From assembly GCA_045805065.1 (NCBI GenBank), contig JBJMMA010000259.1, forward strand, positions 2,874 to 66,873: DNA of 64,000 bases. The letters run 5' to 3'. Each line of letters starts with the position of its first letter. Position 1 is the first letter of the stretch. Below, in pieces: positions 21,958 through 53,644 of the stretch. Below the pieces are notes generated by a model. That model was not told where the DNA came from. It did not search any database and saw only the letters and a program-made list of their open reading frames with translations. Source of the DNA: Bdellovibrionia bacterium. Its GTDB lineage: Bacteria > Bdellovibrionota > UBA1018. The translations under genes were made by a program, and so were the position numbers.

Positions 21958-21973
21958 ACTCCGCCGGCGGAGT
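21958..21973. promoter_or_regulatory. Perfect 16-bp palindrome ACTCCGCCGGCGGAGT, copy 1, 45 nt upstream of mutS
   Basis: Read directly from the sequence. Lies in a divergent intergenic region. Same core as copies at 33061..33074 and 53629..53644. Confidence 0.4.
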
Positions 21974-22018
21974 TTCTTTCTTGATGCACACTCACTCGGG
22001 TGCTAGTCCGGAAAGTCT

Positions 22019-24799
22019 ATGGCGCAGCAGATCGATCTCGAGAATCAGAGCCCTTCTCAGACCCCGTCCCAGACCCCATTAATGAAGCAGTACTGGGATC
22101 TGAAAAAGCAGGCGGGCGATGCCCTTCTTCTTTTCAGAATGGGTGATTTCTATGAACTGTTTGGAGACGACGCGGTTGAGGCCGCTCGCATTCTCGACAT
22201 CACGCTGACCTCGCGCGATAAGAACAAGGCGAACCCGATGCCCATGGCAGGAGTTCCCCACCACAGCGTGCAGGGCTACCTGCAGAGACTTTTGAAAGCT
22301 GGCAAAAAAGTCGCGATCGGCGAGCAGATTGAAGACCCGGCTACCGTCGTGGGCAAGGCGATTGTGAAGCGCGATATTGTTCGCACCTTTACGCCTGGAA
22401 TCCAGTTTGAATCGGAAGGATCGGAAGCCCACTATCTGGCAATCCTCGTTCCTACTTCTTTTGTCCGTGGCGATAAGAGCGACACCTGGAATCTGGCTTG
22501 CCTCGACGCCTCAACGGGTGAAGCGTTAGTCAGTGAGCCTATGAGCGCTCAAGCCGCGGCCACTGAATTGGGACTGTTACCGGTTCGCCATCTCTTGACG
22601 ATCAGCGATCAGTCGCTTCCGGAGCTCTTGAGTCACGCCGTATCGGCCCTGACCGCAAACCAGGTTTTGATCGAAGAGATTCCAGCCAACTATCTTTCGC
22701 TCATTCAGGCGCGCGAGATCCTCAAAAAGAACTATGGCCTGGACCAGCTGGGCGCCTTCATCTCAACAGACGAGGGAATCATCGCTTTAGGAATCCTGGT
22801 CATCTACGCCGCACGCTCGCAAAAACAAGAGCGCTTGCAGCACTTGAGACTTCCTTCTCCTTTGCGCAAACCCAAGACTTTGGTGCTGGGACCGCGCGTC
22901 CCGCAACACTTGGATTTGGTGCCGGCTCAAGAAGGAACCCCTCACCTTTATGGTCTCATCAATCACACACGCTCAGCTCTGGGCGCGCGCCAACTCAAAC
23001 GCTGGCTCCTCTCTCCTTTAAAGGACTCCAAGGAGATCGCTGCCAGGCAGGACGCGGTTCGCGAGATCCTGAGAAGCGATAGCCGCGAGCGCCTCTCGCA
23101 AGAGCTTGCGGATGTTTACGATCTTGAGCGCATCTTGGGTCGCGTGAATACGGGACTTGCCAACCCACGCGACACTTTGCAGCTCGGACGCTCCATCCGC
23201 GCGCTTTCTCAGATGTCTGGCTATTTGAGCTCTTACAAAGCGCCGCTTCTGAAGAACATGGCCGAAAGCTTTGCCCAGGCCTCAAGCGCTCTTCAAGACT
23301 TGGGCAAGAGAATCGTCGACAATCAGCGCGAAGAAGCTCCACTGACCGCGCGCGATGGTGAAATCTTCAGCCGCGGCACCTCTCCGGATCTCGATCATCT
23401 GATTGATCTTACGGAGAACGGTCAGCGCTGGCTCGTGGATCTTGAAACGCGCGAGCGTGAAGCCACGGGCATCACTTCCCTTAAAGTGCGCTACAACCGC
23501 GTCTTTGGATACTATCTTGAAGTGACTTCAGCGCACCTCAAAAACGTTCCTGCGCATTACCAGCGCAAGCAGACGATGGTGGGTGCTGAGCGTTTCTTTA
23601 CGGAAGAGCTGAAAAAGTTTGAAGAAGAGATTCTCACTGCCTCGTCTCGCCAAAAATCCCTGGAGCAGCAGCTCTTCGAAGATCTCTTGAAGTCGATTCA
23701 GGAACAAACTTCAGCGATCATGGAAGCCGCCCGCGTTTTGGGTGAGCTCGATGCGCTGGTCTCGCTCTCGCGCCTGGCCGATGAAGCAGGATGGTCTTTC
23801 CCTGAAATTGATGACTCCCTTGAGATGACCATCATGAACGGCCGTCACCCGCTCGTGGATCGAAACAGCGGCGGTGGATTTGTTCCAAATGATCTGAAAC
23901 TCTCGGATCAAACGCGCCTGACTCTGATGATCACTGGCCCGAACATGGGCGGTAAATCGACCGTCATGCGCCAGGTGGCGCTCATCGTGATTTTGGGACA
24001 AATGGGTGCGCCCGTTCCTGCCAGTGAAGCTCGCTGGGGTTCGGTCTCCTCCTTATATACCCGTATCGGCGCACACGACGCGATCGCCCGCGGCCAATCG
24101 ACTTTCATGGTCGAGATGAGCGAGCTTGCGCATATTCTTCATTACGCGGATTCGCGCTCCCTGATCATTCTCGATGAAATCGGCCGCGGCACGAGCACCT
24201 ATGACGGAATGAGTGTGGCTTGGGCAACGCTGGAGTGGATCTGCCAGAAGATCAAGGCTCGCACTCTTTTTGCGACCCACTATCATGAGCTCACGCGTCT
24301 GACGACGCAGCTTCCACTTCTTGCCAATGCCCATATGGCAGTGGAGAGCGAGAAGACCGGCAAGAGTTCGAATCTTCGCTTCCTTTATAAGCTCAAAGAA
24401 GGTCCAACCAACGAGAGCTTCGGTGTTCACGTCGCGCAGATCGCAGGACTTCCACGCCCGGTGATTGATCGCGCCTGGAAAGTGCTCGATGAACTGGAGA
24501 ACGGAAACGCTCACCCGCAAGCTGCACAGCTTTCGCTTTTTGATTTAGCAGCTCAGGCTGAGCCTGAACAAGAACCTCAAATTGAAACTCAGCCTGAACC
24601 TAAAAAGGAAGAGGAACTCGAGCGACTTGCGATTCTCGAAGATTTAAAAAACCTCAACCTCAACGCAATGACCCCGCTTCAAGCACTCAACGAGCTGGCA
24701 AGACTTCAGGATAAGTATCGCGAATCTGACGAAGGGTTTTCTGCAGGGATCCGCCAACAGCAACCTCAGGATGCTGGATCGAAATCCATCGCAAACTAG
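22019..24799 (+). CDS. mutS: DNA mismatch repair protein MutS
   Basis: 926 aa. Walker A 'TGPNMGGKST'. 'STFMVEMSE' and 'DEIGRGTSTYDG' MutS motifs. Confidence 0.95.
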   Translation: MAQQIDLENQSPSQTPSQTPLMKQYWDLKKQAGDALLLFRMGDFYELFGDDAVEAARILDITLTSRDKNKANPMPMAGVPHHSVQGYLQRLLKAGKKVAIGEQIEDPATVVGKAIVKRDIVRTFTPGIQFESEGSEAHYLAILVPTSFVRGDKSDTWNLACLDASTGEALVSEPMSAQAAATELGLLPVRHLLTISDQSLPELLSHAVSALTANQVLIEEIPANYLSLIQAREILKKNYGLDQLGAFISTDEGIIALGILVIYAARSQKQERLQHLRLPSPLRKPKTLVLGPRVPQHLDLVPAQEGTPHLYGLINHTRSALGARQLKRWLLSPLKDSKEIAARQDAVREILRSDSRERLSQELADVYDLERILGRVNTGLANPRDTLQLGRSIRALSQMSGYLSSYKAPLLKNMAESFAQASSALQDLGKRIVDNQREEAPLTARDGEIFSRGTSPDLDHLIDLTENGQRWLVDLETREREATGITSLKVRYNRVFGYYLEVTSAHLKNVPAHYQRKQTMVGAERFFTEELKKFEEEILTASSRQKSLEQQLFEDLLKSIQEQTSAIMEAARVLGELDALVSLSRLADEAGWSFPEIDDSLEMTIMNGRHPLVDRNSGGGFVPNDLKLSDQTRLTLMITGPNMGGKSTVMRQVALIVILGQMGAPVPASEARWGSVSSLYTRIGAHDAIARGQSTFMVEMSELAHILHYADSRSLIILDEIGRGTSTYDGMSVAWATLEWICQKIKARTLFATHYHELTRLTTQLPLLANAHMAVESEKTGKSSNLRFLYKLKEGPTNESFGVHVAQIAGLPRPVIDRAWKVLDELENGNAHPQAAQLSLFDLAAQAEPEQEPQIETQPEPKKEEELERLAILEDLKNLNLNAMTPLQALNELARLQDKYRESDEGFSAGIRQQQPQDAGSKSIAN

Positions 24800-25808
24800 C
24801 GCCATCTGACTCTGAAGCGCTCAGTACAGAAGATGAGATCGCCAGCTTAGTCATCCATACATGCGCCGTGCGTGTGATTTTGTGACGAGTGACGATAAGC
24901 TTGCTCTCGACTTTGCCCACGCGAGCGAGTTTTGTTTTGGCAACGGGTGATTCCTCGGGAAAATCCCAAAGCCCCGCCCGCCACTCGCCGGGACGCCTGA
25001 GTGCCAGAAGCATGCGTCCTTTTGAGTCAAAGATGCAATGCACTTCCTCTTTCACCGCAAGCCACTCTTTAGGCTTTTTCTTCGGCGGATAGGCCTCTTC
25101 TTCGGAGTTCTGATGTGCGCGGCACATGGACGCGATCGGGCACAAAAGGCATTTCGGTTTTTTCGGCGTGCAGACCGTCGCACCGAGCTCCATCATGGCT
25201 TGATTGAGAACGCTTGGGCGCACTCCCTGCTCATGGGCGCGCTCGACAAAAACTTTTGAGAGTCGCCACAGACGATTCTTGTAAGCTGCATCTCCTCCCG
25301 CGCGTGAAACGCGACGTACGCGCGAGAGCACACGCTCAACGTTTCCATCCAGGATGGATTCGGGTTGATTGAGCGCGATCGAGAGAATTGCGCCTGCCGT
25401 ATAAGGACCTACTCCCGGAACATCAAGCCAGCCTTCGCGAGTACGAGGAAATCCACCTGCTGCCACGATCTGGCGAGCAGCTTTATGAATATTGCGCGCT
25501 CGCGAGTAATAACCCAAGCCTGCCCAATGCAGGAGCACGTCTTCCTCAGGCGCGGCTGCCAACGTCTCAACGGATGGAAAGCGCGAAACAAAGCGCTCAA
25601 AGTAAGGAATGACGGTAATGACCTGAGTTTGCTGCAGCATGATCTCTGAGATCCACACGCGGTAAAGCGTGGGTTCATCACGCCACGGTAAGACACGTTT
25701 TTGACGCTCAAACCATTCACCGAGCTGATTCAGCTCCTTTAATTGCTTTAGCTGCTTAAGCGGGCTTCTACCCTTTGCTCCTCTTGCCATTCCCGCTGTT
25801 TCTCCCAT
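24687..25808 (-). CDS. mutY: A/G-specific adenine DNA glycosylase MutY
   Basis: HhH-GPD 'VWISEIMLQQTQV' with a C-terminal NUDIX-like domain. The C-terminal residues read 'CTPKKPKCLLCPIASMC' and may correspond to the Fe-S cysteine cluster. Its 3' end overlaps the mutS 3' end by 113 nt. Confidence 0.8.
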   Translation of the reverse strand: MGETAGMARGAKGRSPLKQLKQLKELNQLGEWFERQKRVLPWRDEPTLYRVWISEIMLQQTQVITVIPYFERFVSRFPSVETLAAAPEEDVLLHWAGLGYYSRARNIHKAARQIVAAGGFPRTREGWLDVPGVGPYTAGAILSIALNQPESILDGNVERVLSRVRRVSRAGGDAAYKNRLWRLSKVFVERAHEQGVRPSVLNQAMMELGATVCTPKKPKCLLCPIASMCRAHQNSEEEAYPPKKKPKEWLAVKEEVHCIFDSKGRMLLALRRPGEWRAGLWDFPEESPVAKTKLARVGKVESKLIVTRHKITRTAHVWMTKLAISSSVLSASESDGASLRWISIQHPEVAVGGSLQKTLRQIRDTYPEVLPAR

Positions 25809-25821
25809 AAGCTGAAATTCG

Positions 25822-26679
25822 GTGGCAAGAACGATCTTTCACGGCATCTTTATAAACTTAGTGGGACTTACCTTGAGCTCGGCTCTTTTTGGGCCGCTTG
25901 CCGTCTCATCCGCATGGGCTGCAAAACCCAAGCATCCTTTTAAGGTCGTGATTGATCCGGGCCATGGTGGAAATGATCATGGCACCACTCAACTCATCGG
26001 AAACGCCGAAGTGATGGAAAAGCAGCTCACTCTGGCGCTTGCGCAAGAGACTGCGCGCATTCTTCGCGCCAAAGGCGTAGTGACGATTCTCACCCGCACC
26101 GAGGATAAAGACGTAGCCCTGGGGGCTCGCACCGCGCTTGCCAATCGCCTGAAGGCCGATGTCTTTCTCTCCATTCACATGAACTCCACTGACACTCCCA
26201 TGGTGGTCGGGGCCGAAGGGATTGAGACATTTATTCTGAACAACACCACAGACGCGACATCCAAGCGCCTGGCCCACCTTGAAAACTCCGTCCTCAGCCC
26301 TGAAGAGCGCGCTGCTGCCGAATCCCCAGAGCAACTGGATGTGGCGCTGATCCTGAGAGACTTGCGGCTGGATGCCAATCTTTCTGAGAGTAAACGCCTG
26401 GCCTGCATCGTTCAGGATCATCTGATCGGTACGGCCAAAGCAAAACCGCGCAATCGCGGCGTCAGACAGGCCCTCTTCCACGTTCTCTTAGGCGCTGAAA
26501 TGCCCAGCATCCTGGTTGAGGCGGGCTTTCTATCCAATCCTCGCGATCGTGAAACCATGCAGTCGCCGAAGAGCCGCCACGCTCTGGGAGTCGCTCTCGC
26601 ACGCGCGATCATGAGCTTCCGGGACACTCGTGGCACGGGTCAGGCTCAACTGACATTGAGCAGATGTAAAGTTCATTGA
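25822..26679 (+). CDS. N-acetylmuramoyl-L-alanine amidase (Amidase_3 family)
   Basis: Signal peptide. 'VVIDPGHGGNDHGT' and 'FLSIHMNS' Ami-type motifs. Confidence 0.85.
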   Translation: MARTIFHGIFINLVGLTLSSALFGPLAVSSAWAAKPKHPFKVVIDPGHGGNDHGTTQLIGNAEVMEKQLTLALAQETARILRAKGVVTILTRTEDKDVALGARTALANRLKADVFLSIHMNSTDTPMVVGAEGIETFILNNTTDATSKRLAHLENSVLSPEERAAAESPEQLDVALILRDLRLDANLSESKRLACIVQDHLIGTAKAKPRNRGVRQALFHVLLGAEMPSILVEAGFLSNPRDRETMQSPKSRHALGVALARAIMSFRDTRGTGQAQLTLSRCKVH

Positions 26680-26871
26680 CAGTTCTTGCCTGAGGGCAAG
26701 TAACCATCAATCCTATTCGTTTACTTTTAACTCCATTCTTTTCATATACTTACAAAATGACACACCGATGCGTCGACTTTGACGCACCTGGCATTCGACT
26801 TGCTCTAATCCCTCCCGAGAGAGCTGAAGTGACGAGGGTCACGTAGAGTAGAACCCCTCGCACGCAAAACG

Positions 26872-27540
26872 TTGTTAGTGGAGGTAGTTATGAAAACGAA
26901 AAAGTTGGCCATTGCCCTGGCCATGAGTACGATCTCGCTCCTGACAGGATGCGGATCCAGCGGCGGTAGTCCCGCACCGGTAGCAGGAAACATCATCGGT
27001 TACACCCAACAGTGCACGCCGACAGGCTGTGTGCAGGTTCCAATCTATGGCGGAACCGGTGGTTGCGTTCCTCTTTCATCACCGATTTACTTTGCAGGCT
27101 CAGGACAAATCTTAGGAAATGTCCTGGCAGCAGGCACGATTCCTAACTACGGAACGTATGGTAGCTTAGGAATCTCCACCTCACCGGTTTCCCAGGTGGG
27201 GGGCCAGGTCTATACAAGTCCTTCGGGATTGCAGATCAGCGTCGCCAGCTCCTACGCAGGAGCTCAGACGTCGGTATCGGGTAGCTTGCAACTCAGCCAG
27301 GCCGCCCAATACAACATCTCATTGGCAGCCCAAAGTGGGGCTTACCCGAGTTATAACAATGCATCCTATACACCCTGGGGCAACTCTTCGTACTACGGAG
27401 GCGGTTACACCAGCAGCAGCGCCTGTGTGAGCGGTATCGCTCTCCAGCTTGCTCCTTACACGAGCGTGAACGGTGTCTACGGATACGCCTATCTTTACCT
27501 GAACAATACTCAGCACGGATACATCCTCCAGCTGTACTGA
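26872..27540 (+). CDS. Gly/Ser/Tyr-rich low-complexity lipoprotein
   Basis: Lipobox 'LLTGC'. The mature part is G/S/Y/Q-rich and ends with a Tyr-rich C-terminus 'VYGYAYLYL'. Confidence 0.5.
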   Translation: MLVEVVMKTKKLAIALAMSTISLLTGCGSSGGSPAPVAGNIIGYTQQCTPTGCVQVPIYGGTGGCVPLSSPIYFAGSGQILGNVLAAGTIPNYGTYGSLGISTSPVSQVGGQVYTSPSGLQISVASSYAGAQTSVSGSLQLSQAAQYNISLAAQSGAYPSYNNASYTPWGNSSYYGGGYTSSSACVSGIALQLAPYTSVNGVYGYAYLYLNNTQHGYILQLY

Positions 27541-27705
27541 TCTGAGTTAAGTTCTGAAAAAACTATCTCCCTCTCCAAAGGGTCCGTCTTCTAGCGGTAG
27601 CGGTATCAAGCGGAAGTAGAAGCAGAAGCAGTATGAAGTTGCACGACGGAACCACAAGGCAGCCCAACCGGTAACACGGGGCAGATGTTGCCGACTTGGG
27701 CGAAA

Positions 27706-27744
27706 GGGGTAAGCGCTTCCTCAAAAAGGGAACGCTTACCCCTT
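27706..27744 (+). terminator. Hairpin (terminator-like) inside the 5' extension of the recombinase ORF
   Basis: Inverted repeat 'AGGGGTAAGCGCTTCC-tcaaaaag-GGAACGCTTACCCCT' followed by 'TTCCTT'. Confidence 0.35.
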
Positions 27745-27777
27745 CCTTATTACATAGCGCCAGTTAAAATAAGAGAA

Positions 27778-28710: not shown

Positions 28711-28770
28711 AGTCAGGACCCGTTTTAAATCCTGTGCTAGAACCATAACTCATAGACTCATTGAGGACTT

Positions 28771-30452: not shown

Positions 30453-30625
30453 ACCGACCGCTTTATCCAGCTGAATTAGCCCATTTAGTCTATTTTCAAC
30501 TGTCTAAGTGTAATTTGCTTGCCCTAAGTAGAAACAATCAGCACCCTGTGTTTATTTGACACATCCTATTCCCGGATAGGCCTGTTAGACTGAGACTATT
30601 CATCAAAAGTCGAATTAGGCGGGGA

Positions 30626-32566
30626 TTGCAATCACAGGGGGCACGTATGAGATTTCATTCTTTTTTGATGGCTGTAGCACTTTTAGGCGCACAGACCGCG
30701 TTTGGGGACGTCTGCAGCAAAGTATCCGAGAACCAGGTCGCACAATTGACCTGTCCTGCGGGTCAAACTATTACGAACATTGGTTTTGCGAGTTACGGGA
30801 CCCCCTCCGGCGCATGCGGCAGCTATAGTGTCAGCAGTTGCAACTCCAGCACCTCCAAGAGCGTCGTGCAATCGGCGTGTGTAGGCAAAGCGTCTTGCCA
30901 AGTCAGTGCTTCGAATTCCTTGTTTGGCGATCCTTGCAGTGGCATCACGAAATCTCTTGCCATTCAAGCCGTATGTTCGGCTCCTTCAACCTCAAACGCC
31001 TGCACGAGTGTGGCCGAAAGTCAGTCCGCGGCACTCACTTGTCCATCAGGAAAGGTCATTTCAAGCATTACCTTTGCGAGTTACGGGACCCCAACTGGCT
31101 CGTGCGGCAGCTTTGCAGTGAGCAGCTGTAACGCAAGCACCTCGAAGAGCGTTGTGCAATCGGCATGTGTAGGCAAAGCATCCTGCCAACTCAGCGCTTC
31201 AAATTCCTTGTTTGGCGACCCTTGCAGTGGCGTAGGCAAAAGGCTTTCTGTCCAGGCAGTTTGTTCTTCAGTGGTTCCAAAACCAAGCCCTAGTCCAAGT
31301 CCGACTGTGACTCCAAAGCCTACTCCGACGCCTACTCCATCGCCTACGCCGACTGCGACTCCGCTTCCAGCCGTGGGCTCAAATGTCGTCGTACCTAGCG
31401 CGATCGCTATCCCAGCCTCGACGCTTGCCTTGCCAAGTGGCATCGCCAACGGATCATCTGCTTCAAGCCCAACCGTTGTCAGTCTGCAATGCGGACAAGT
31501 TTATCGGGGAACGCTTGATCTCAGCTACAAATCCTACATCTCCGTGAAAGTCGCAGGTACCTGTGGCAAGCCGACCATCATTCCTGCATCCAATTCACAA
31601 GTCGGGATTAATGCTGTTGGCGCAAACACCATCAAGATCAGCGGCATCAAAATCCAGGGCGCATCTCAAGGGATCAACGTGAACAATGCGAAAACCATCA
31701 GCATTGATAACGTGGATATCTTGAACAGCTCCAACGCCGGGATTTTTTGCAGCGGTGTGAATGGCATGACTGTTTCGAACAGCAGTATCAGTAACAGCGG
31801 CGTCACGGGTGTCGACAGCCTGGGCGCGGTCAGCAACGCGACGATCACTAACACGACGGTTTATAATACCAGCAAAGGTAGCGGCGGCGCAGGTGGCGTC
31901 GGCATCTACTTCTATAACGGTACTAACAACCGGATCGATCACGTATCTGTCAGCAACTCTGCTTATCACGGAATTGTCTCTCTTGAGACAACCAATTCCT
32001 ATGTGACGAACAGCATAGCTCAAAATAGCTGCACAGGTCCTGATAAGGATTGTGGCGCAATCTACACGGCACAGAAAGCCACGCCACATGCCGGTCTTAA
32101 TCTGATCATCGACAACAACAAAGTGGTCACCAGTGGAGGCAGCGGCATCTACCTCGATGACTATGCCAATGGCGTGACCGTCTCATACAACGACGTCTCC
32201 GGATGTTCAGACGGGATGATATTGCACAATGGATACAACAACAATATCCATCACAATAAGATCGCCAACAGCGCGGTTGCTCACGTCACCATGGGCCAGG
32301 ACACTGGAACCATGCACGACAACGTGTTCACGTATAACGCGATGAACTCCACTCATGGCGAATACGGTTACCGACTTGAAACCGGAACCAACCTGAGCAC
32401 CTTTGCCCGGTATGACAACAACACCTACCAGAGCACCAATGTGAGCCACTTTGGCCGCCTCTGGCAGGGTGGCTCGAGCCCTGGCATCGACGCCAGCTAC
32501 AGCGCCTGGAAATCAACCTACATGCCAGGTCAGGATGCTCACTCAACGATGAACGGTGCCCAATAA
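30626..32566 (+). CDS. Secreted protein with two tandem SUEL-type (galactoside/rhamnose-binding) lectin domains, a Pro/Thr/Ser linker and a right-handed parallel beta-helix domain
   Basis: Signal peptide. A ~115-aa repeat occurs twice with 'ASYGTP.G.CGS..VSSCN.S.SKSVVQSACVGKASCQ.SASNSLFGDPCSG', matching the SUEL/Gal_Lectin cysteine pattern. Linker 'PKPSPSPSPTVTPKPTPTPTPSPTPTATP'. C-terminal 'NSS/NSG/NTT' repeat rungs are typical of pectin-lyase-fold beta-helices. Confidence 0.75.
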   Translation: MQSQGARMRFHSFLMAVALLGAQTAFGDVCSKVSENQVAQLTCPAGQTITNIGFASYGTPSGACGSYSVSSCNSSTSKSVVQSACVGKASCQVSASNSLFGDPCSGITKSLAIQAVCSAPSTSNACTSVAESQSAALTCPSGKVISSITFASYGTPTGSCGSFAVSSCNASTSKSVVQSACVGKASCQLSASNSLFGDPCSGVGKRLSVQAVCSSVVPKPSPSPSPTVTPKPTPTPTPSPTPTATPLPAVGSNVVVPSAIAIPASTLALPSGIANGSSASSPTVVSLQCGQVYRGTLDLSYKSYISVKVAGTCGKPTIIPASNSQVGINAVGANTIKISGIKIQGASQGINVNNAKTISIDNVDILNSSNAGIFCSGVNGMTVSNSSISNSGVTGVDSLGAVSNATITNTTVYNTSKGSGGAGGVGIYFYNGTNNRIDHVSVSNSAYHGIVSLETTNSYVTNSIAQNSCTGPDKDCGAIYTAQKATPHAGLNLIIDNNKVVTSGGSGIYLDDYANGVTVSYNDVSGCSDGMILHNGYNNNIHHNKIANSAVAHVTMGQDTGTMHDNVFTYNAMNSTHGEYGYRLETGTNLSTFARYDNNTYQSTNVSHFGRLWQGGSSPGIDASYSAWKSTYMPGQDAHSTMNGAQ

Positions 32567-32607
32567 CTTAGGCTCCTGATCTAGACATCGACACTAAGGA
32601 GAGGCGC

Positions 32608-32655
32608 TTGAAGTGATTGAAACCACTTTGAGCGCCTCACTCTTTTTGAGCTTGT
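32608..32655 (+). terminator. Hairpin terminator after the lectin/beta-helix gene
   Basis: Imperfect inverted repeat 'GAGGCGCTTGAAGTG...CACTTTGAGCGCCTC' followed by 'ACTCTTTTT'. Confidence 0.4.
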
Positions 32656-32701
32656 GAGTTCTCAGAGTGAGAATGGTTCAACAAGTTTTTTAATCAAGAA
32701 G

Positions 32702-32968
32702 TCAGCCGCGTTTTCGGACCAGCTTTTCGTAGGGCGGCAAGTTAATTTGCTCTTTAAGGGCTTCCTGATAGGCTTCTTCCAAGTGCCACGAGGTCTTTTC
32801 ATAGGAGAAAAGGAGCTCACAAAGACCGGCAGTATCCTCCGCATCAGGAGAAGCCTCGTCGAGCTCCTTTTTAAGCACGTCGATCATGTGATCGACAGCT
32901 TGGATAATCATGACCAAGTCATTTCCTCTAATCATCGGCATTGAAGTTCCTTTCTTCACCCGTCCCAA
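32702..32968 (-). CDS. Hypothetical small charged protein
   Basis: An 88-aa ORF with a helical, charged composition. No homology recognised. Confidence 0.3.
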   Translation of the reverse strand: MGRVKKGTSMPMIRGNDLVMIIQAVDHMIDVLKKELDEASPDAEDTAGLCELLFSYEKTSWHLEEAYQEALKEQINLPPYEKLVRKRG

Positions 32969-33060
32969 TAGTCATTAGGATGGACGGAAGAATCAGTTTA
33001 GTCATCCATAAACCAGAGTAACTGGGCTCACCCAACACTCAAAGCCGGTAAGGCGCGTCG

Positions 33061-33074
33061 CTCCGCCGGCGGAG
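33061..33074. promoter_or_regulatory. Palindrome core CTCCGCCGGCGGAG, copy 2, about 105 nt upstream of the AlkD-like gene
   Basis: Seen directly. Lies in a divergent intergenic region. Confidence 0.4.
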
Positions 33075-33179
33075 TCAACTCAGGCTCCTTTGCCGGACTC
33101 ATAATCGTCAGCAGGCTTTTCTCAAGCTCGGAGAACAAACGATGCTGCCCTTTTTCGCGCATTAGAATAAAGACTGATT

Positions 33180-33872
33180 ATGCCCACCTCCAAACTCCTC
33201 AGCGAGCTCCGCCGTGAGCTCAAAAAAGCTGCGGTCCCCGCGAAGGCGCCTGAGATGCAGGCCTATATGAAATCCAAGATGCCTTATCACGGCGTACAGA
33301 CGCCGATGAGGCGGCTGATCTGCAAGCAGCTTTTCAAAAACGTTGAATTCAAAAACGCCCGGGAATGGGAGACGGAAGTTCGAGCAATCTGGGAAGGCGC
33401 TCGCTTTCGTGAAGAACGATACTGCGCGCTCCAGCTTTGCAGCCACAAAAGCGCCGACGAATTTCAAACCCCCAAAGCTTTGAAACTTTACGAGGATCTC
33501 ATCGTGGATGGCGCCTGGTGGGATTATGTGGATACGCTGGCAGCCGACCGAGTCGGAAATCTTCTGGAGCGCTACCCTGCTGACATCAAACCACTGATGC
33601 TCCAATGGAGCCGCTCGGCCGACATGTGGAAAAGGCGCACTTCGATTATTTGTCAGCTTGGCTTTGGTTTAAAAACTGATCTTAAGCTGCTTTATGCGTG
33701 CATTGAGCCCTCGTTGGGATCAAAAGAATTCTTCCTCCAAAAAGCGATCGGCTGGGCAATAAGACAATATGCCTGGAAGGACCCAAAAGAGGTCAAACGC
33801 TACGTGGCCCAAAACGAAGATCGACTTGCACCTCTCAGCCGTCGTGAGGCTCTGAAAAATCTGAATCGCTAG
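33180..33872 (+). CDS. DNA alkylation repair protein (AlkC/AlkD-like HEAT-repeat glycosylase family)
   Basis: 'MQAYMKSKMPYHGVQTPMRRLI' and 'DGAWWDYVDTLAADRVGNLL' match the DNA_alkylation family pattern. 230 aa. Confidence 0.65.
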   Translation: MPTSKLLSELRRELKKAAVPAKAPEMQAYMKSKMPYHGVQTPMRRLICKQLFKNVEFKNAREWETEVRAIWEGARFREERYCALQLCSHKSADEFQTPKALKLYEDLIVDGAWWDYVDTLAADRVGNLLERYPADIKPLMLQWSRSADMWKRRTSIICQLGFGLKTDLKLLYACIEPSLGSKEFFLQKAIGWAIRQYAWKDPKEVKRYVAQNEDRLAPLSRREALKNLNR

Positions 33873-42140: not shown

Positions 42141-42147
42141 TTCGGGT

Positions 42148-45646: not shown

Positions 45647-45689
45647 TCAGTTCCAACGGAATAGCTCTTGCTCTCATGCTTGCATTGAA

Positions 45690-46616: not shown

Positions 46617-46700
46617 CCAAAGGGAAAAATCCAGCCCCCGCTACCATTCAAGCAAAAGATAAAAGGGACAGTCCACTGGACTGTCCCTTTTTGTTTTTAA
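46617..46700 (+). repeat. Diverged direct repeat of the tRNA-fMet 3' end plus terminator (attR-like junction)
   Basis: 'AAATCCAGCCCCCGCTACCATTCAAGCAAAAGATAAAAGGG' aligns with 39723..39761 with 3 mismatches. A different perfect hairpin 'GGGACAGTCC-actg-GACTGTCCC' and 'TTTTTGTTTTTAAAGCACG' follow, paralleling 39762..39804. Confidence 0.6.
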
Positions 46701-46756
46701 AGCACGTATGTCTTAACTAAGTAAAACTGAGCTTCTTAGCTAACGAGTGGCGAGGA

Positions 46757-48130
46757 TTAATTCATTGGCGGAGGATTCGACAAGAACTCAGTCATTGTCG
46801 CACCTTGATCCTTGTTCGGCACGATTAAGGTGGCCGTACGCCAGTTCGGCGTCGCCAGGAGATAACGACCGTTACCTAAGCCCGGCGCATAACCCAGACT
46901 CCACCCCGTGGTAGGGGTAGGATAATAATCAGCCCCTGTGTCGATCACGTACTTGGCGACGCTGCGATCATCTGGCTTGGACGAATCAGCAACGACAAGC
47001 CTCGTATCCACAGCCACGAAAACCGCTCTTACGTCCGCAGGATTTGGAATCCCTTTGCCCCCGCTCGAGGAGGAGCTGCCGTAGCCGTGCTCGAAGTAAG
47101 GATAGGCAGGGCGAAAGGAAACGCCACCGTCGGATTCTACTTTTCGGTCAGGCGTGCCCGCGCTGGCGAATGGGTACTTCCACAGGCCAGTGTCCGGAGC
47201 CGTGACTTGGTTCCATTGCGACCACTTGCGCGTCGAATTGGAGAGAATGTAAACTCTAAGATTTTTGATTTCTACACGCGTGTTGGTCGCGGCGTTTCCT
47301 TGAGCCTCGTACAGCGTGTACCATGCGAGCAATCCGCTACACCAGGTAGGACGCTCCCCCGTCCACCAAGATGGGATTGAGCTTCCGGCTGGTGAGTACT
47401 GCGTGATCACAGGATTGTACTGCCAGTCGAACGAAGGATTGATCACCAGCGCCTCGCTTGGAGACGACATGTCTTTCACCACTTGGTCGATTGTCAGCCC
47501 AGTTGAGGAAGTCGACGAAGGCGTTGGACTTGGCTTTACAGTCGGTGTCGGACTTGGACTTGGCTTCGGAGTCACAGTTGGACTCGGGCTCGGAATTGGC
47601 GCGGCTCCACTTGCAAAGCTCCATTTCTGATTGGCACCGGCGCCGCAATCATAGAGAATCACCGGCGTTCCATTTGCGGAATTATTTGCGGCGACATCCA
47701 TGCAGCGTCCACTCGATGCACTCACAAGCCTTCCGTTCGAGAGTGACCATTTTTGAGTTACTGAATTGTTGCAGGTCTTGGAGACGATGGGATTCAAGTT
47801 GGCGCCAGTGCCCTTGATGTCCAGGCAAAGATTGCCAGCACCAGCAAAGCTCTTCAGCTGTCCTGAGGAGTTCAGAACGAAAGACTGATTGCTTCCGCCG
47901 TTACAACTCCAGATCTCAAGCGCCGCGCCAGAAGCAGTGCTGTTAGCAGTGACATCTAAGCATATATTGGTTCCAAGGCTGCTCTTCACTGCCCCTGATG
48001 CTACGGTCGTGACTGCCGCAGCTTTGGCTGGATGGGCGGAGGCGATCAATGCAAGAGCAAGTCCTCCCGACCAGGGCGCAACTCGCTTTAAAAATGCTCT
48101 ACTCTTAATCGCTCTACAGGTTTTCATTTC
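46757..48130 (-). CDS. Secreted ricin-B (beta-trefoil) lectin domain protein with a Pro/Thr/Ser linker and an unknown C-terminal domain
   Basis: Signal peptide from the internal Met 48130. QxW repeats 'NQSFVL', 'TQKWSL', 'NQKWSF' lie around 'CLD' motifs. Linker 'PSPSPTVTPKPSPSPTPTVKPSPTPSS'. The ORF extends to 48178. Confidence 0.7.
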   Translation of the reverse strand, partial: EMKTCRAIKSRAFLKRVAPWSGGLALALIASAHPAKAAAVTTVASGAVKSSLGTNICLDVTANSTASGAALEIWSCNGGSNQSFVLNSSGQLKSFAGAGNLCLDIKGTGANLNPIVSKTCNNSVTQKWSLSNGRLVSASSGRCMDVAANNSANGTPVILYDCGAGANQKWSFASGAAPIPSPSPTVTPKPSPSPTPTVKPSPTPSSTSSTGLTIDQVVKDMSSPSEALVINPSFDWQYNPVITQYSPAGSSIPSWWTGERPTWCSGLLAWYTLYEAQGNAATNTRVEIKNLRVYILSNSTRKWSQWNQVTAPDTGLWKYPFASAGTPDRKVESDGGVSFRPAYPYFEHGYGSSSSSGGKGIPNPADVRAVFVAVDTRLVVADSSKPDDRSVAKYVIDTGADYYPTPTTGWSLGYAPGLGNGRYLLATPNWRTATLIVPNKDQGATMTEFLSNPPPMN

Positions 48131-48440
48131 ATTCCCCCGACAGGAACTGTCTATTCCGTTCCTTATTATCGCACCCAAGCTACAGTAATATCAGCTGTGT
48201 CTCTATCGACCAGTCTCGAAGACGCATAAATTCGCTGAACTTTCGCGAATTAAAGTCAATCTGTATACGCACATAGGCAATGAAATGTTTTGCATCAAAT
48301 CGAGCACCCTCTCCTTGCTCAATAGACGTTGTATAACCGATATCGGACCCCAATCTGACGAGGCCTCGGTGCCTTGCTGGGCCGCTCGCCCCCTTTTCAT
48401 CGCATGATTACCCCCTTGCATCGTGTGGTAGAATAGACGC

Positions 48441-49082
48441 ATGCATACGCAACTTGATCTGCAAGATTTCAAAACGTCTCATCCAGTAACAACTCTTTTC
48501 AGACGCACGCTCATTACCGGAGCAAGTGTCAGCGCCGATTTTTGCGCACCTAGCCCTGGCAAGCGGCTAGGCTGGAAATACGGCGGAAAAGACAGCGTTG
48601 TGACATTGGCTCGGGGAGGTACGCCGGGCCGTGAAACCATTCGACGATTGACTCACGATGACATCGCGGATCGGACAATCGTGATTGCCATCGATTTCTT
48701 CTTCTGGGATTCGACCTCCCATTTGCTCGATGCAAGCCTCACCGCTCTTCAAGACCTCATTGAGTTGTGCAGAAAGCCGGGAGTTCCGCTAATCTTGGGC
48801 GACATTCCGCATCTTCTTCCAGGAATGCAGCCGGGTCGTGCCAAACTAAACGCTGCGATCCACGCAGCAGCCAAGGCATCCAGTCATTGCTCTGTCATGG
48901 AACTCGATGAGCTTCACCGACAAGTGCTTTGTGAGGGAATCGAATTCGGAGGGCGCCGGTATCGACTGACTGATCTTGCGCCCGATGGTTTGCACTTAGC
49001 TGAGGTGGCAGGAAATTATGTAGCTGAACGGCTTTTGGCTACAGTAACCAGGGATTTCACAAAGCTTGCACAACTGGGATAA
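48441..49082 (+). CDS. SGNH/GDSL-like hydrolase
   Basis: Block V-like 'PDGLHLAEVAGNYVAERL' (DxxH) and an N-terminal 'ITGASVSADF' variant of block I. Confidence 0.45.
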   Translation: MHTQLDLQDFKTSHPVTTLFRRTLITGASVSADFCAPSPGKRLGWKYGGKDSVVTLARGGTPGRETIRRLTHDDIADRTIVIAIDFFFWDSTSHLLDASLTALQDLIELCRKPGVPLILGDIPHLLPGMQPGRAKLNAAIHAAAKASSHCSVMELDELHRQVLCEGIEFGGRRYRLTDLAPDGLHLAEVAGNYVAERLLATVTRDFTKLAQLG

Positions 49083-49102
49083 AAGATTCAGGGGTTTTTG
49101 TT

Positions 49103-51004
49103 CTATTGGGTTGAGCCACCTTGTAAAAAGAGCGACTGAAGGCGATTCATCAGCTGAGGGTTATCGATGCCACCGGGCCGGCTCACGCAGCTCTTTATCT
49201 TGTCACGATTGGAAATCTCAGCTTTGATCAAATCACAAGTCTTTTGCCTTTCTCTTGTACTGAGGGGCAACGATAAGCTCATTAATGCCTCTATCCTGAC
49301 CTCGGGCTCATCTTTCGTTTTCTCCACTAAGCATTCAAATTGCGTCTCCCCTAATTCAGGACCGGCAGTTTGGATCTGACTTGAGATCTTTGAAACAGAG
49401 CACGGCCCTTCTAACAGGTTTATCGCTTTTTCCTGAGGATCGTTTTCGACTGCGTCTTTTCTAAGGCGACTCAACATTAGCCAGGTGTTCTTGCGTAGCA
49501 CTGGCCTGCACACCGCTGGGTCTGGTTCTCTCATACATCGCTTGAAGGAAATGCCAGCCACCCATTCCAGCTTAGATTTTTGGATCTCACTCAACGGCCT
49601 TTTGAGATCCTTAATCTCATCCTGTCGATATCGAATCAATGTTTCAATGTTCGATTTGTATCCATAGTCTTTGGGTCGAGTTAATTCGCCGAACCAAGAT
49701 ACCAAGTCTTCATTGCTCCGTGCGTGGCGTATCTTTTTGATCTCAGCATTTAAATTCTCAATTTGCGTATTTATTTCCGTCGGAGTCAGGGCATGAATGG
49801 CGGCGATGACTTCACTCTTTGACTTTTCCAACGCTTCGTCCATCAATTTTTCAACACGTTTTACATTTTCATCATTACAACCTACGAAAGATTCGATTGT
49901 CCTCAGATATCGACTCTGGGAATCCAGCTCTGAACGAGCGTACTCAAATACTGCAAAATGGGTCGCCTTAGTTGCAAGGCTTAACACGTCGGGCGCTTGA
50001 GAAACGAAAGCATTGCAGGGCGAGACAATCTCGTTTCGCTCTGGAGGTCCCAGACAATAGTCGGCCAAGGTCAGATCGAAAGAGCTTTGAGGCAGAATGA
50101 GATATTGCTTAGCTCGCTCCGAGTTGTAAACCGACGACTTCATGACATCGAATAAAGCCAGTGTTCCCTCTTGGTAATGCTTTCTCGCGTTCGAATGCGC
50201 ATCGAGAAAAGACATCCCTTTTTCTAATTCCTTATTGAGATACAGAAGGTAGGAATTTGAATGATTGAGTTGAAGACACTCGGGACGATTATCGCAATTT
50301 TTCTGCTCAATTGCAGACGGAACACCTTTGTAGGCTTCAGGATCGGAAGGCTTTTCATAGTGAATCGAGACTAAACCAACCTGACTTCCAGAGGTTGAGC
50401 TGAACACCTGCACACCTGGAATGTCGGATACTGCGCGTATGGCATTTCCGCCAAAGCACGACAGCGTATTCAAATTAACACGGCCGTTGGGATTCTTCGT
50501 TTTATACTCGAGCAAAGACTTCCGAAGATCGCCTAGTCCAAAAAATTCCACATTTTCAGTAGAAGGAACGAATGCATAAGCAAATCGTACCGGTCCGTTC
50601 ACTTCTTCATTGTCTGTTAACTGGCTCGATAATTCGTCCTGTCGCAGGTAGCTTCTTGGAAAACGACCAGGATCTCCCTCAAGGGGCGATGATTTATCCG
50701 CTTGGTAAACTGTCCCATGAGAATAAATGTGAATGTCCAGTCGATCCACGCCGACTTGATCCGCGATCAACTTCCGCAGTTTCTCCGCGTTATCTCCAGG
50801 CGAGGCCCTGAACTGGATGACCTCATAGCCTTTCTTATAATAGCTCATGGAAGTGAGGTACGCAGAGTGGGCAAAATTCGATTTTAAGTTTCGGTCGTCG
50901 CCCCCATCGACGACAATGGCGACTTTTCGCCCCGCCGTCGCATATTGCGGAAAGCTTACTGTCAAAGCTGTTAAAGCGAGAACAAAAGACCGTAAGCGGT
51001 TCAT
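49103..51004 (-). CDS. Secreted protein with an N-terminal caspase-like (clan CD cysteine peptidase) domain and a large helical C-terminal region
   Basis: Signal peptide. 'KVAIVVDGGDD', a His-Gly dyad 'HIYSHGT' and a candidate catalytic Cys 'LNTLSCFGGNA', in the order seen in caspase/legumain/clostripain-type folds. Confidence 0.5.
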   Translation of the reverse strand: MNRLRSFVLALTALTVSFPQYATAGRKVAIVVDGGDDRNLKSNFAHSAYLTSMSYYKKGYEVIQFRASPGDNAEKLRKLIADQVGVDRLDIHIYSHGTVYQADKSSPLEGDPGRFPRSYLRQDELSSQLTDNEEVNGPVRFAYAFVPSTENVEFFGLGDLRKSLLEYKTKNPNGRVNLNTLSCFGGNAIRAVSDIPGVQVFSSTSGSQVGLVSIHYEKPSDPEAYKGVPSAIEQKNCDNRPECLQLNHSNSYLLYLNKELEKGMSFLDAHSNARKHYQEGTLALFDVMKSSVYNSERAKQYLILPQSSFDLTLADYCLGPPERNEIVSPCNAFVSQAPDVLSLATKATHFAVFEYARSELDSQSRYLRTIESFVGCNDENVKRVEKLMDEALEKSKSEVIAAIHALTPTEINTQIENLNAEIKKIRHARSNEDLVSWFGELTRPKDYGYKSNIETLIRYRQDEIKDLKRPLSEIQKSKLEWVAGISFKRCMREPDPAVCRPVLRKNTWLMLSRLRKDAVENDPQEKAINLLEGPCSVSKISSQIQTAGPELGETQFECLVEKTKDEPEVRIEALMSLSLPLSTRERQKTCDLIKAEISNRDKIKSCVSRPGGIDNPQLMNRLQSLFLQGGSTQ

Positions 51005-51225
51005 GAAGCTACCCTCTGCACGACAAGCGCAGACCCCTCGATTGCTTATCGGAAAAATCGGCAGCTCCCTTAATAGCCTTTAAAATCATGTATCTGCGAG
51101 CGGTGATCTATTGACACGACTGAGCTAGCGACATTTTTTCTACGCTGCCTTCCGCAGATCTCCATCCGGCCCCTGGAGACGCGGCCACAGGTGGAGCAGA
51201 TTCTTTGAGTGGTCGAACCGGCGAC

Positions 51226-51747
51226 TCAACCTGCTGGTCGCAACAATTCTCCCTCGGCCTTTGTATAAATTAACTTTCGCGTGTCAAAATGATTCGCCTC
51301 AAGCCGACGCAGGACTTTGGACAATACCGCTTTTGGCATCCTGGGCTTACGACTCAAAATCCAGAGGTATTTCCGACTCGGCTCGCTGACTACCGAATAC
51401 GAGTAATCAGAAGCAAGATCGATGATCCAATAATCTCCGCGCCCAATTTCCAGCCAGCGCAAAAAACCAGGAACAAAACTTACCTTCAACTTGGCGTGGG
51501 TTCGCAAGTCTGCAACCTCGGCCACTCCCTCCACCGTCTTAAGTCATCGTGTATTCAGCCGTGGCATCGGTGCAGTCTTTCTGAAAAGAATTCGGAAATC
51601 GAGCGATCTCGTACCACTTGCCCAAGTAGCGCGAGAGATCGACCGAAGGAACTGTTTCCAGCTCCGGGGCATCATCGGGTTTTGCACACTACAGGCAACT
51701 GTGATATCGGAATAAAGCGCGCCTGACAGCCCAAAAGCAAGCGCCAT
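51226..51747 (-). pseudogene. blc: Bacterial lipocalin (Blc-like outer-membrane lipoprotein) gene with a -1 frameshift just after the lipobox
   Basis: Frame A (51544..51747) gives the signal peptide and lipobox 'ITVACS'. Frame B gives 'PELETVPSVDLSRYLGKWYEIARF...AKLKVSFVPGF...YLWILSRKP', the lipocalin SCR1/SCR2/SCR3 motifs, continuous to 51226. The frames switch near 51687. A stop (TAG) in frame B lies inside the lipobox codons. Confidence 0.55.
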
Positions 51748-51784
51748 TCAAAGAGGTTCTCCTATTGCACCGCGAATTAAAACC

Positions 51785-53041
51785 ATGGCGCCATCCGTAA
51801 AGCAGGACGAAAAACTCCACTCTCACATAGAAGATCTCCGCGGGACAAGCCGACTTGCCATTGAAGCAACTCAAGGCGTTTGTGATCTTATTGAAGCCAT
51901 GCATGAGACGGTCGCTAAGGGGCCCTACTTGTTAGGAAATCCACTTCAACGCCCAACGCGTACGATCAATCAAATGGTTTACGGAAGCATCCGTTGCGTA
52001 ACAAACCTTGTAGGAGCAAGTATCGATGGTGTCCTCGGAAGACTCACACGGCTTATCGGTCCGGGTCATAGAGTCTCCCGCTCCTCTCAGGAAGATGCCG
52101 TACTTGCAGTGCTCAATGGAGTCCTGGGCGACTATCTGCAGGAGACCGGTAATCCTCTAGCCATCCCGATGCAGCTACGGCACACCGGCGCTCCTCTTGT
52201 GCTCGAGCCAAAGGCGTTGCATGCGGCATTACCGAAGGCAGGCCCCAAACTCCTCCTTTTGGTCCATGGCTCGTGCCTGAGTGACCGACAATGGTCTCGA
52301 CAAGGGCATGATCACGGGGCGGAGCTCGCGCGCGACTTGGGATACACGCCGATATATCTGCACTACAACACCGGCCTCCACATTTCGACTAACGGTCGCA
52401 CGCTCGCCACACTCCTTGATCAGCTTGTCACAGCGTGGCCTGTGCCCCTGGAAGAAATCGCCATTTTATCCCACAGCATGGGAGGGCTCGTGGCTCGTAG
52501 CGCTTGTCACATTGCAGAGGAGCAAAACTATCTCTGGCGAAGGAAGTTACGCGTGGCGATCTTTCTTGGGACACCTCACCAGGGAGCACCGCTTGAGCGT
52601 GTGGGCAACTGGATCGACCATCTCTTAGTCATCAACCGTTACAGTGCCCCTTTCGCGCGGCTTGGTAAAATCCGCAGCGCCGGCGTAACTGACATGCGCC
52701 ATGGCAACGTGTTGGACGAACACTGGCAAGGCCGCGACCGCTTTGCTCATGGCCGCGACACCCGTACACCTTTGCCACTACCAACGAATATTTCCTGCTA
52801 CACGATCGCCGCAACAAAGGGCCCCAAAGGAACGGGAAAGCTACGAAGCGACGGCATTGTCCCCGTGAACAGCGCACTTGGCATGCATAAGTTGGCAAAG
52901 CATAGCCTTGTCTTCCCAGAAACACACCAATGGATCGCCTACGGAACAAGCCATCTCGATCTGCTCAACCGCCACGAAGTCTATACAACGGTCCGGAAAT
53001 GGCTCGAAGCACCCAAGCCAGCAAGCCTACCCAGTGGATGA
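51785..53041 (+). CDS. Alpha/beta hydrolase, lipase-like (PGAP1/EstA-like)
   Basis: 'LLLLVHGS' and nucleophile elbow 'ILSHSMGGLVAR'. Confidence 0.55.
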   Translation: MAPSVKQDEKLHSHIEDLRGTSRLAIEATQGVCDLIEAMHETVAKGPYLLGNPLQRPTRTINQMVYGSIRCVTNLVGASIDGVLGRLTRLIGPGHRVSRSSQEDAVLAVLNGVLGDYLQETGNPLAIPMQLRHTGAPLVLEPKALHAALPKAGPKLLLLVHGSCLSDRQWSRQGHDHGAELARDLGYTPIYLHYNTGLHISTNGRTLATLLDQLVTAWPVPLEEIAILSHSMGGLVARSACHIAEEQNYLWRRKLRVAIFLGTPHQGAPLERVGNWIDHLLVINRYSAPFARLGKIRSAGVTDMRHGNVLDEHWQGRDRFAHGRDTRTPLPLPTNISCYTIAATKGPKGTGKLRSDGIVPVNSALGMHKLAKHSLVFPETHQWIAYGTSHLDLLNRHEVYTTVRKWLEAPKPASLPSG

Positions 53042-53452
53042 GAGTAATCCTTCAGCCTTCTGCAGCTGACTTTCAGCAACTTTCGGCTGGTTCTTGTTCA
53101 AAGCCTGCTCCGCGTTTCCGAGCTGCTTGTCCGCACTGGAGAACGGCGAGGCGCCTGCCTTGCCCCCCGTCATTCCTTCGACCTGCCCTACTCCGGAGCC
53201 GGACTTCAGGGCTTTCAGGTTCTCACGAGCGCTGCTGATATCGGTTTTCGCGGTCGCGTAGTCTTTTTTGCCAATATTGCTCCGAGCCGATTTGATGTTG
53301 TTGAGCGCGTTCTTGGCTGCTGAGCTCATGTCCTGACTACCGGCCTGCCCTTTTGCGCCAGGGACCTCCGGCAACTGGGGCTGCGCATTTGCCGCAGTTC
53401 CGCCGAGCACAAGCATGAATGCGGCTAGAAGCACGTGTAATTGAAACTTCAT
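53027..53452 (-). CDS. Small secreted Lys/Ala/Ser-rich protein
   Basis: Signal peptide 'MKFQLHVLLAAFMLVLGGTAANA'. The mature part is a low-complexity helical repeat. Confidence 0.45.
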   Translation of the reverse strand: MKFQLHVLLAAFMLVLGGTAANAQPQLPEVPGAKGQAGSQDMSSAAKNALNNIKSARSNIGKKDYATAKTDISSARENLKALKSGSGVGQVEGMTGGKAGASPFSSADKQLGNAEQALNKNQPKVAESQLQKAEGLLSSTG

Positions 53453-53574
53453 ATGACATCACTCCCTCTTCTCGGGTGAGTTGCAAGATCTGGCGCCACC
53501 ACAATGGCGCGCGACCAAAACCTCAGATCACTGCTCAGGCCTTGAACCGGCTTGCAGCACGCTTGAAAGGCGGC

Positions 53575-53612
53575 TTTTTTGTCTTAAGCACGTGCTTCTT
53601 AGCTAAGTACTT
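53575..53612. repeat. Junction motif 'TTTTTTGTCTTAAGCACGTGCTTCTTAGCTAAGTA', related to the sequence following the att-like repeats
   Basis: Aligns at about 30 of 38 nt with 46679..46716. 'GCTTCTTAGCTAA' also occurs at 46721. 'TTACAAGGAC' at 53658 also occurs at 39880. Contains the palindrome AAGCACGTGCTT. Confidence 0.35.
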
Positions 53613-53628
53613 CTGCGCTTTCTAGTGA

Positions 53629-53644
53629 ACTCCGCCGGCGGAGT
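53629..53644. promoter_or_regulatory. Perfect 16-bp palindrome ACTCCGCCGGCGGAGT, copy 3, between the divergent small secreted protein gene and the class 3 lipase gene
   Basis: Seen directly. Identical to the copy at 21958..21973. Confidence 0.4.

Follow-up and report, generated by a model that had tools for sequence, protein, structure and literature searches.

A GC-rich 16-bp palindrome carried by HNH nuclease genes of the Bdellovibrionota is a candidate nuclease recognition site

A 64-kb stretch of DNA from a Bdellovibrionia bacterium (contig JBJMMA010000259.1; hereafter the window) contains three copies of a GC-rich palindrome, whose 16-bp form ACTCCGCCGGCGGAGT we term P. P is associated with a family of HNH nuclease genes, in which it occurs both upstream of and within the gene. 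One window copy adjoins the remnant of such a gene and another is under no detectable constraint. We favour, with some reservation, the view that P is the cognate DNA site of this stand-alone, Bdellovibrionota-specific nuclease family, and that the window copies are orphans and not a repair regulon; binding, autoregulation and cleavage at P are the activities we infer. This reading explains the perfect palindrome without a repair regulon.

Recurrence of P and its copies in HNH nuclease genes

The 14-bp core of the palindrome, CTCCGCCGGCGGAG, has exactly three exact copies in the window (21959-21972, 33061-33074 and 53630-53643) and is the sole 14-mer to occur three or more times. No exact match arose in 100 dinucleotide-preserving shuffles of the window, and the recurrence is non-random, as originally predicted. 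P itself is exact at 21958-21973 (copy 1) and 53629-53644 (copy 3). Copy 2, at 33060-33075, reads GCTCCGCCGGCGGAGT, which begins with G and matches P at 15 of 16 positions; the predicted coordinates, with the exact 16-mer at two sites and the 14-bp core at the third, were thus confirmed. No further copies were found in the window at up to three mismatches and nothing convincing at four or five, and alignment revealed no likeness between their flanking sequences outside the 16 bp. The copies occur singly, at intervals of 11-20 kb. Divergent open reading frames (ORFs) flank each of them, and all three fall in the 9.3% of the window without long ORFs, which has a probability of ~8e-4 under random placement.

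We used the 16-mer to scan 185,579 species genomes; matches to the 14-mer in viral contigs were swamped by chance. At least 117 stretches matched, and most came from high-GC taxa, in line with chance expectation. Among the matches listed, seven stretches (eight sites) came from metagenome-assembled genomes (MAGs) of 44-57% GC labelled as Oligoflexia or Bacteriovoracaceae; these include three contigs of one MAG, and none overlaps the window. ORF and Pfam analysis identified members of a single HNH nuclease family in four of the 117 stretches listed (loci L137, L151, L223 and L245). The proteins of this family are ~310-370 amino acids long and consist of a helical N-terminal domain, a disordered linker and a C-terminal HNH nuclease domain. 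L151 has one P 43 bp before the start of the gene and a second inside it. L245 has an exact P ~300 bp upstream of the gene and a two-mismatch copy inside, while L223 carries an exact P, and L137 a two-mismatch P, at the same internal position in the linker. A further 80 metagenomic loci were obtained with a 48-sequence family alignment.

In P-type family members one P precedes the gene by ~240-320 bp and another, at about +690, falls in the DNA that encodes the linker and is read there as TPPAE, the family consensus in the linker. Two copies per gene were observed in L151, L245, L248, L250, L251, L253, L326 and L327. TPPAE is present in 52 of the best 120 family proteins, in linkers that are otherwise unrelated. 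Across 12 distinct genes, among them about five lineages whose proteins are only 45-65% identical, the TPPAE codons are always ACT or ACG, CCG, CCG (CCT once), GCG and GAG. Elsewhere in the same genes the frequencies are 0.31 for CCG, 0.30 for GCG, 0.41 for GAG and 0.25 for ACT. The codons are fixed far beyond the needs of the protein, which shows conservation at the level of the DNA. The residue following TPPAE is S, L, C or F in 40 of the 52 proteins, as expected if the 16th base of P, a T, is conserved, since the next codon can then begin with T.

Other lineages carry a different sequence, which is again common to the upstream and internal positions. The shared site is ACTCCGGCGCCGGAGT in L262, AGTCCGCTAGCGGACT in L306 and AGTTCCACTGGTGGAACT in L338; it is 22 nt long in L304, and L312 and L317 share non-palindromic 15-17-mers. 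Comparisons within a locus revealed shared 13-mers or longer in 18 of 63 cases, and cross-locus controls did so in 10 of 369. Across lineages the two copies, upstream and internal, co-vary. A DNA motif kept in the coding segment of a disordered linker, duplicated upstream, with the two copies co-varying, is a rare signature. The upstream copy sits in a segment variable through insertions and deletions, which some copies of the element lack, and lies 20-135 nt upstream of TTGAC-like -35 hexamers (identified by eye at five loci; a simple promoter scanner was uninformative).

P was also observed away from the family genes. In L172 an exact P (1435-1450) is read in frame, as TPPAES, within the ORF of an ABC-F ATPase, in the linker that joins its second ABC domain to the C-terminal domain. 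In L326 an exact P (9256-9271) lies 18 nt upstream of the ATG of a NUDIX gene and a two-mismatch P (9717-9732) just past its stop codon; the NUDIX gene is followed by the HNH gene and then by mutL. The association with promoters envisaged in the original prediction holds for the window copies, which are intergenic, but not for the copies inside ORFs, namely those in the HNH linker and the ABC-F gene. In four further stretches, from Acidobacteriaceae and one Bacteroidales MAG (L160:3784, L189:1417, L214:2545 and L234:7538), the 16-mer is embedded in a conserved context of ~50 nt, TGGAGTAGTAAAGCTCCTTT-P-TTGTGAAGCG, which has no Rfam match and probably represents conserved coding sequence without relation to the HNH family. 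A Dehalococcoidia MAG (L149) has two exact 16-mers 2.2 kb apart, at 4403 and 6599, with no HNH-family gene nearby.

Upstream of the HNH genes we also observed a leader motif, CGTTTTAGAGGCCCGAAtTTCcCGTGtTA, ~40 nt before the start codon in the L248-L257 group, in L326 (~9960) and in L338 (~2945). It is common to three lineages that are only ~45% identical in protein and does not occur in 464 kb of flanking DNA; it may act as a regulatory RNA or as a binding element for a protein. A long tandem array with a 9-nt unit, AAGGAGACA/GAGGAGACA, lies upstream of the family gene in L292 (1000-1180).

Window copies and the corresponding loci of relatives

Two metagenomic relatives, L327 and L331 (Joint Genome Institute (JGI) 3300037423), are 81-90% identical to the window in DNA sequence. 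At its alkD locus L327 has an intact HNH-family gene (P0134) between a beta-helix gene and alkD; exact copies of P are present 317 bp upstream of this gene and within it, and alkD starts 9 nt after the HNH stop codon. Homology between the two sequences ends at L327:9545 and resumes at L327:10931, which corresponds to window position 33079, 4 nt past copy 2; window 32575-33078 has no counterpart in L327:9546-10930. To the left of copy 2, an 88-amino acid Tsi2-like ORF on the minus strand (32702..32968; Pfam T6SS_Tsi2-like, E 1.2e-7) occupies the place of the upstream region and N-terminal part of the L327 HNH gene. To the right, 33076..33165 on the plus strand comprises the last 29 codons and the stop of an HNH nuclease ORF (QLRLLCRTHNRQQAFLKLGEQTMLPFFAH, then stop), which align with L327:10931-11017 by blastn, and is followed by the AlkD-like DNA_alkylation gene (33180..33872, plus strand; Pfam PF08713, E 3e-62). 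A hidden Markov model (HMM) of the family gave a single significant match in the six-frame translation of the window, at 33052-33162 on the plus strand (E 5e-7, HMM positions 284-311), and the window contains no intact family gene. Because homology resumes beside copy 2 and the HMM matches the HNH C-terminus there, copy 2 is the junction of a truncated HNH-family gene. The stump is of a kind that gene callers would not annotate. The original description of three divergent intergenic sites is accurate in that all lie between divergent ORFs and outside long ORFs, but the DNA to the right of copy 2 is a nuclease gene remnant and not plain promoter DNA.

Copy 1 precedes the mutS ATG by 45 nt and a -35-like hexamer, TTGATG, by 7 nt; it lies between a 407-amino acid ORF with no Pfam or NCBIfam match (20615..21838, minus strand) and mutS (22019..24799, plus strand; Pfam MutS_I-V). 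The window MutS is 100% identical to MFL5815878.1 ('MAG: Bdellovibrionia bacterium'). In relatives L001-L003 and L124-L128, with MutS identities of 74-87%, the mutS gene order is kept and P is found nowhere in the 14-23 kb available for each. Conservation of the motif in orthologous promoters, raised by the original prediction, was not observed: P is absent upstream of mutS in L001, L124 and L128, where the position of the 407-amino acid ORF is held by other genes, and in the close relative L331 the orthologous site is AGTCCGTCGGCGGCGT, which matches P at 13 of 16 positions. L331 has the gene order of the window, including a 394-amino acid orthologue of the 407-amino acid ORF, and its spacer is 77% identical to the left of the site and 93% to the right, on the mutS-promoter side. 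The copy 1 site is older than the split between the window and L331 and drifts like the neighbouring spacer, without detectable constraint. A possible HNH remnant beside copy 1, hinted at by tblastn (E 0.011), received no support from the family HMM and was dropped. No HNH-element DNA was found in the flanks of copies 1 and 3, one apparent score being a low-identity gapped alignment.

Copy 3 sits in a spacer of ~400-510 bp between a 141-amino acid ORF on the minus strand and a class 3 lipase gene (Lipase_3) on the plus strand. The lipase is annotated at 365 amino acids, so its start is probably near 53964. The sole relative found for this locus, L333 (70% lipase identity), has other upstream genes and lacks P. 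At 53560-53582 on the plus strand, ~55 nt before copy 3, is a hairpin that resembles a terminator and has a T run (CGCTTGAAAGGCG GCTTTTTTGT); no plus-strand ORF ends there in this long spacer, and the hairpin could point to a small transcript that is not annotated.

The source MAG probably encodes at least four nucleases of the family, judged from the numbering of four protein accessions (MFL5812016.1, MFL5813307.1, MFL5813561.1 and MFL5815596.1) that carry the organism name of the window MutS and fall with it in a block of ~3,900; all four contain TPPAE. We also observed two islands that vary between the window and its close relatives, at ~20600-21960 and ~30600-33170. The gene content of the pyruvate kinase-mutS interval differs in every relative. 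In L124 and L128 a tRNA-synthetase gene is directly followed by scpA; in the window a lectin/beta-helix gene, the Tsi2-like ORF, P, the HNH stump and alkD lie between these two genes. At 63518-63996 the 12-13-mers GGCGCAACAGGA and CAGGAACGAATGG are repeated, in three copies each, in what is probably a repetitive coding region.

The nuclease family and its cassette

We identified 536 homologues at E<=1e-10, labelled 'HNH endonuclease [Bdellovibrionia bacterium]' or, by JGI, 'McrA'. Some genomes carry several, many homologues lie on contigs of 1-3 kb, and the family is absent from 2.9 million viral contigs; a phage origin was rejected. The proteins match Pfam HNH at E 1e-7 to 1e-8, and the catalytic and zinc-binding residues of this domain are invariant in the family alignment. 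The N-terminal domain gives a weak match to Pfam DUF222 (E ~0.004, 17 bits against a cut-off of 24.4), and a few members have a precomputed PF02720 match. An AlphaFold2 model (predicted local distance difference test score, pLDDT, 88.5) consists of the helical N-terminal domain and the HNH domain; pLDDT falls below 50 for linker residues 210-225, where TPPAE lies. A Foldseek search returned Noc at a probability of 0.95 but an E value of ~0.7, and no match to ParB, KorB or Noc was found at the sequence level. The model is suggestive of a ParB/KorB/Noc-like helical DNA-binding fold. In a comparison of the family profile with the PDB, positions 97-296 weakly matched (E 8e-4) a group II intron maturase, 6me0_C, in its DNA-binding/En (HNH) region; Rfam revealed no group II intron RNA.

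The genes beside 90 members of the family represent 127 Pfam families, none of which recurs at more than two loci, and include no recombinase or partition ATPase partner. Given this lack of recurrence, the HNH gene stands alone, and its adjacency to repair genes in the window is coincidental; the link to DNA repair implied by the original prediction is not borne out. We found no description in the literature of the family, of its self-carried co-varying site or of any Bdellovibrio palindrome, and a nuclease family with such a site is apparently undescribed.

In one lineage the gene forms part of a ~1.7-kb cassette, 84-95% identical between copies, which occurs with sharp ends in at least five contexts (L248:606, L251:4423-6153, L257:1550-3149, L255:4545 and L315:4543). 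The left end starts with GGGAMTYCGGNAGAA and the right end finishes with AAATGCCGGGGAC(CC), the termini forming imperfect inverted repeats. In L257 a 10-bp direct repeat, TATTGTTCCG, resembling a target-site duplication, is present at both ends; L251 shows none. No known transposase accompanies the cassette. The inferred empty site of L257 holds no P, and P was therefore not the insertion target there. Other family members are stable single loci, P0226, for example, occurring on 34 contigs that represent one locus across many samples. Several members are frameshifted pseudogenes.

Interpretation and comparison with known systems

Under the reading we favour, a dimer of the nuclease would bind the palindrome, and occupancy of the two sites on its own gene would autoregulate a potentially toxic enzyme, by analogy with KorB at its OB operators and I-TevI at its own promoter. 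Nicking or cutting by the HNH domain, at P or close to it, is also possible and would turn the edges of P into rearrangement breakpoints. The window copies would have been left by the family or generated through it, copy 2 as the junction of a truncated gene, copy 1 as an old orphan decaying in the sister lineage and copy 3 as an orphan. From the original proposal of a dimeric transcription-factor operator, a palindrome for protein recognition is retained as most likely, in view of the predicted ParB/KorB/Noc-like fold of the associated protein; an operator for DNA-repair promoters is not supported. P may serve as a marker for annotating the cassettes of the Bdellovibrionota, their pseudogenes and the variable islands that surround them.

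A broader version of this reading, which we offer tentatively and with considerable doubt, is that P marks an undescribed class of selfish chromosomal elements whose sole protein, a ParB-fold/HNH nuclease, recognises a co-evolving upstream and internal site. The nuclease would act in trans on orphan sites, nicking or breaking the DNA and so creating or maintaining hypervariable islands beside housekeeping genes such as mutS and scpA, and in at least one lineage the cassette would move in the manner of an insertion sequence without a known transposase. If the nuclease does act on orphan sites beside mutS, this could bear on genome plasticity in predatory bacteria.

Several observations weigh against P being a site for a dimeric nuclease of this kind. 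The shared site is non-palindromic in some lineages and its orientation varies, which fits a monomeric, asymmetric binder, or recombination or RNA pairing. The upstream P is missing from L252, L257 and L315, elements that are otherwise intact, and so it is not essential. The orphans at copies 1 and 3, L144, L172 and L326:9256 are perfect over all 16 positions, yet their flanks hold no remnants of the element, a combination that simple decay of an element does not predict. The N-terminal ParB/Srx CTPase domain was not detected, Pfam giving only HNH and the weak DUF222 match, and the four paralogues can be assigned to the source MAG by accession numbering only.

Some of these observations would be accommodated if P were a break or recombination site, cut by the HNH nuclease or by a host recombinase. 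The scattered copies would then be rearrangement junctions or footprints, and the two copies of the element would be partners for inversion or deletion of the promoter and N-terminal segment and not operators. The junction at copy 2 falls at the right edge of P, with unrelated DNA to its left, and the islands that contain copies 1 and 2 differ from one relative to another. Perfect orphans without flanking remnants would also be expected, the in-frame P of the ABC-F ORF resembles a footprint, and the non-palindromic lineages mostly have an inverted upstream copy, with similarity over ~30 nt. However, N- and C-terminal parts on opposite strands, as inversion would leave them, were seen at 0 of 80 loci, as was simple deletion between the upstream and internal copies, and in some lineages the copies are direct and not inverted. 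No recombinase travels with the gene in the 90 neighbourhoods, and no recombinase is known among the HNH nucleases. Furthermore, the sequence after copy 2 differs from that after the internal P of the relative, ~230 bp being missing. We consider a break site possible but unlikely. A role for P as RNA seems less likely again. P could form a hairpin or terminator, or the upstream copy, as a 5' leader or small RNA, could pair with the internal copy in the nuclease mRNA and limit its expression. Type I toxin-antitoxin pairs share short repeats, two perfect-palindrome copies in one RNA are mutually complementary and the inverted copies of the non-palindromic lineages would pair too; there is also the strongly conserved leader motif, and copy 1 scores as terminator-like. 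Yet the hairpin is weak (-4 to -5 kcal/mol) and no better than in shuffles, a T tract is present only at copy 1, where no plus-strand gene ends, and the upstream copy, lying ahead of the -35 hexamers at the five loci inspected by eye, is probably outside the mRNA. The copies of the direct-repeat lineages L286, L293, L304 and L338 would not pair, no Rfam family was found at the sites or in the elements, and the orphan copies are left without a role.

It is very improbable that a conventional dimeric transcription factor, with a regulon that includes mutS and alkD, uses P as its operator, even though all three window copies are in divergent intergenic regions, two adjoin repair genes and copy 1 is close to a -35-like hexamer. 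The NUDIX gene of L326 likewise has a P just upstream, and the HNH gene of that locus lies beside mutL. An operator is essentially refuted by the lack of conservation upstream of mutS in relatives, with the L331 site mismatched at 3 of 16 positions, a divergence that matches the neutral rate in the spacer. Copy 2 sits on the stump of a pseudogene, an HNH gene takes its place at the alkD locus in the relative, and P occurs inside ORFs elsewhere, in the HNH linker and the ABC-F gene. Sites in the window are exact or match at 15 of 16 positions and do not grade into degenerate forms, and the neighbours of the family genes are heterogeneous. Least probable of all is that P is an autonomous mobile repeat unrelated to the nuclease gene, akin to repetitive extragenic palindromic (REP) sequences or miniature inverted-repeat transposable elements (MITEs), or a chance recurrence. 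The original prediction had allowed for a small REP-like element, and the copies are indeed dispersed and intergenic, with unrelated flanks, and so loosely REP-like; conserved flanks, a Y1 transposase and a paired arrangement are all lacking. The absence of exact matches in 100 shuffles stands against chance, similarity stops at 16 bp with no conserved body, no REP-associated tyrosine transposase (RAYT) or other transposase was found, and P accompanies the HNH gene from genome to genome and co-varies with it. REP/RAYT sequences, MITEs, terminators and chance are excluded as explanations of P.

The nuclease-site reading has partial parallels in several known systems. ParB, KorB and Noc bind palindromes of 13-16 bp as dimers. 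Like their sites (OB operators, parS and the Noc-binding site, NBS), P is a 16-bp perfect palindrome found at several places and at variable distances from promoters. Unlike these systems, no CTPase domain was detected, the N-terminal domain is fused to HNH, a site lies in the protein's own coding sequence and there is no partition ATPase partner. The homing endonuclease I-TevI is reportedly an autorepressor that acts on an operator resembling its homing site. Similarly, a selfish nuclease would here bind its cognate site at its own promoter, and the recognition sequence accompanies the gene. I-TevI, however, is a GIY-YIG enzyme encoded in an intron, whereas the HNH gene is free-standing and chromosomal and has its second site inside the ORF. 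The target of a homing endonuclease is whole in empty alleles and disrupted or altered where the element is present; P differs in that it is intact beside and inside the gene in genomes that bear the element, and the empty site of L257 lacks P.

REP repeats are imperfect palindromes of 20-40 bp with a conserved head, often arranged as inverted pairs and flanking a Y1 (HUH) RAYT gene. P shares with REP/RAYT systems (REPtrons and REPINs) the character of a short, GC-rich, dispersed intergenic palindrome that also lies beside the gene of its presumed recogniser. It differs in that the protein is an HNH and not a Y1/HUH enzyme, there is no GTAG head, there are no paired or inverted doublets, copies are few and P is kept within the gene. 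The nearest named relatives of the family are the DUF222-HNH or REP13E12 repeats of mycobacteria (Gordon et al. 1999, cited in PMC10589994). These too are multi-copy chromosomal genes with a helical N-terminal domain and an HNH domain ('HNH endonuclease signature motif containing protein'). The present family differs in having a DUF222 match below the cut-off and in belonging to another phylum, and the literature we found describes no cognate repeated site for REP13E12. HIP1 of cyanobacteria is likewise a perfect, GC-rich palindrome specific to a lineage, and it too is tolerated in intergenic DNA as well as in frame inside genes. HIP1 is 8 bp long, occurs in thousands of copies and is not tied to one gene family; P, in contrast, is 16 bp long and tied to a single gene family.

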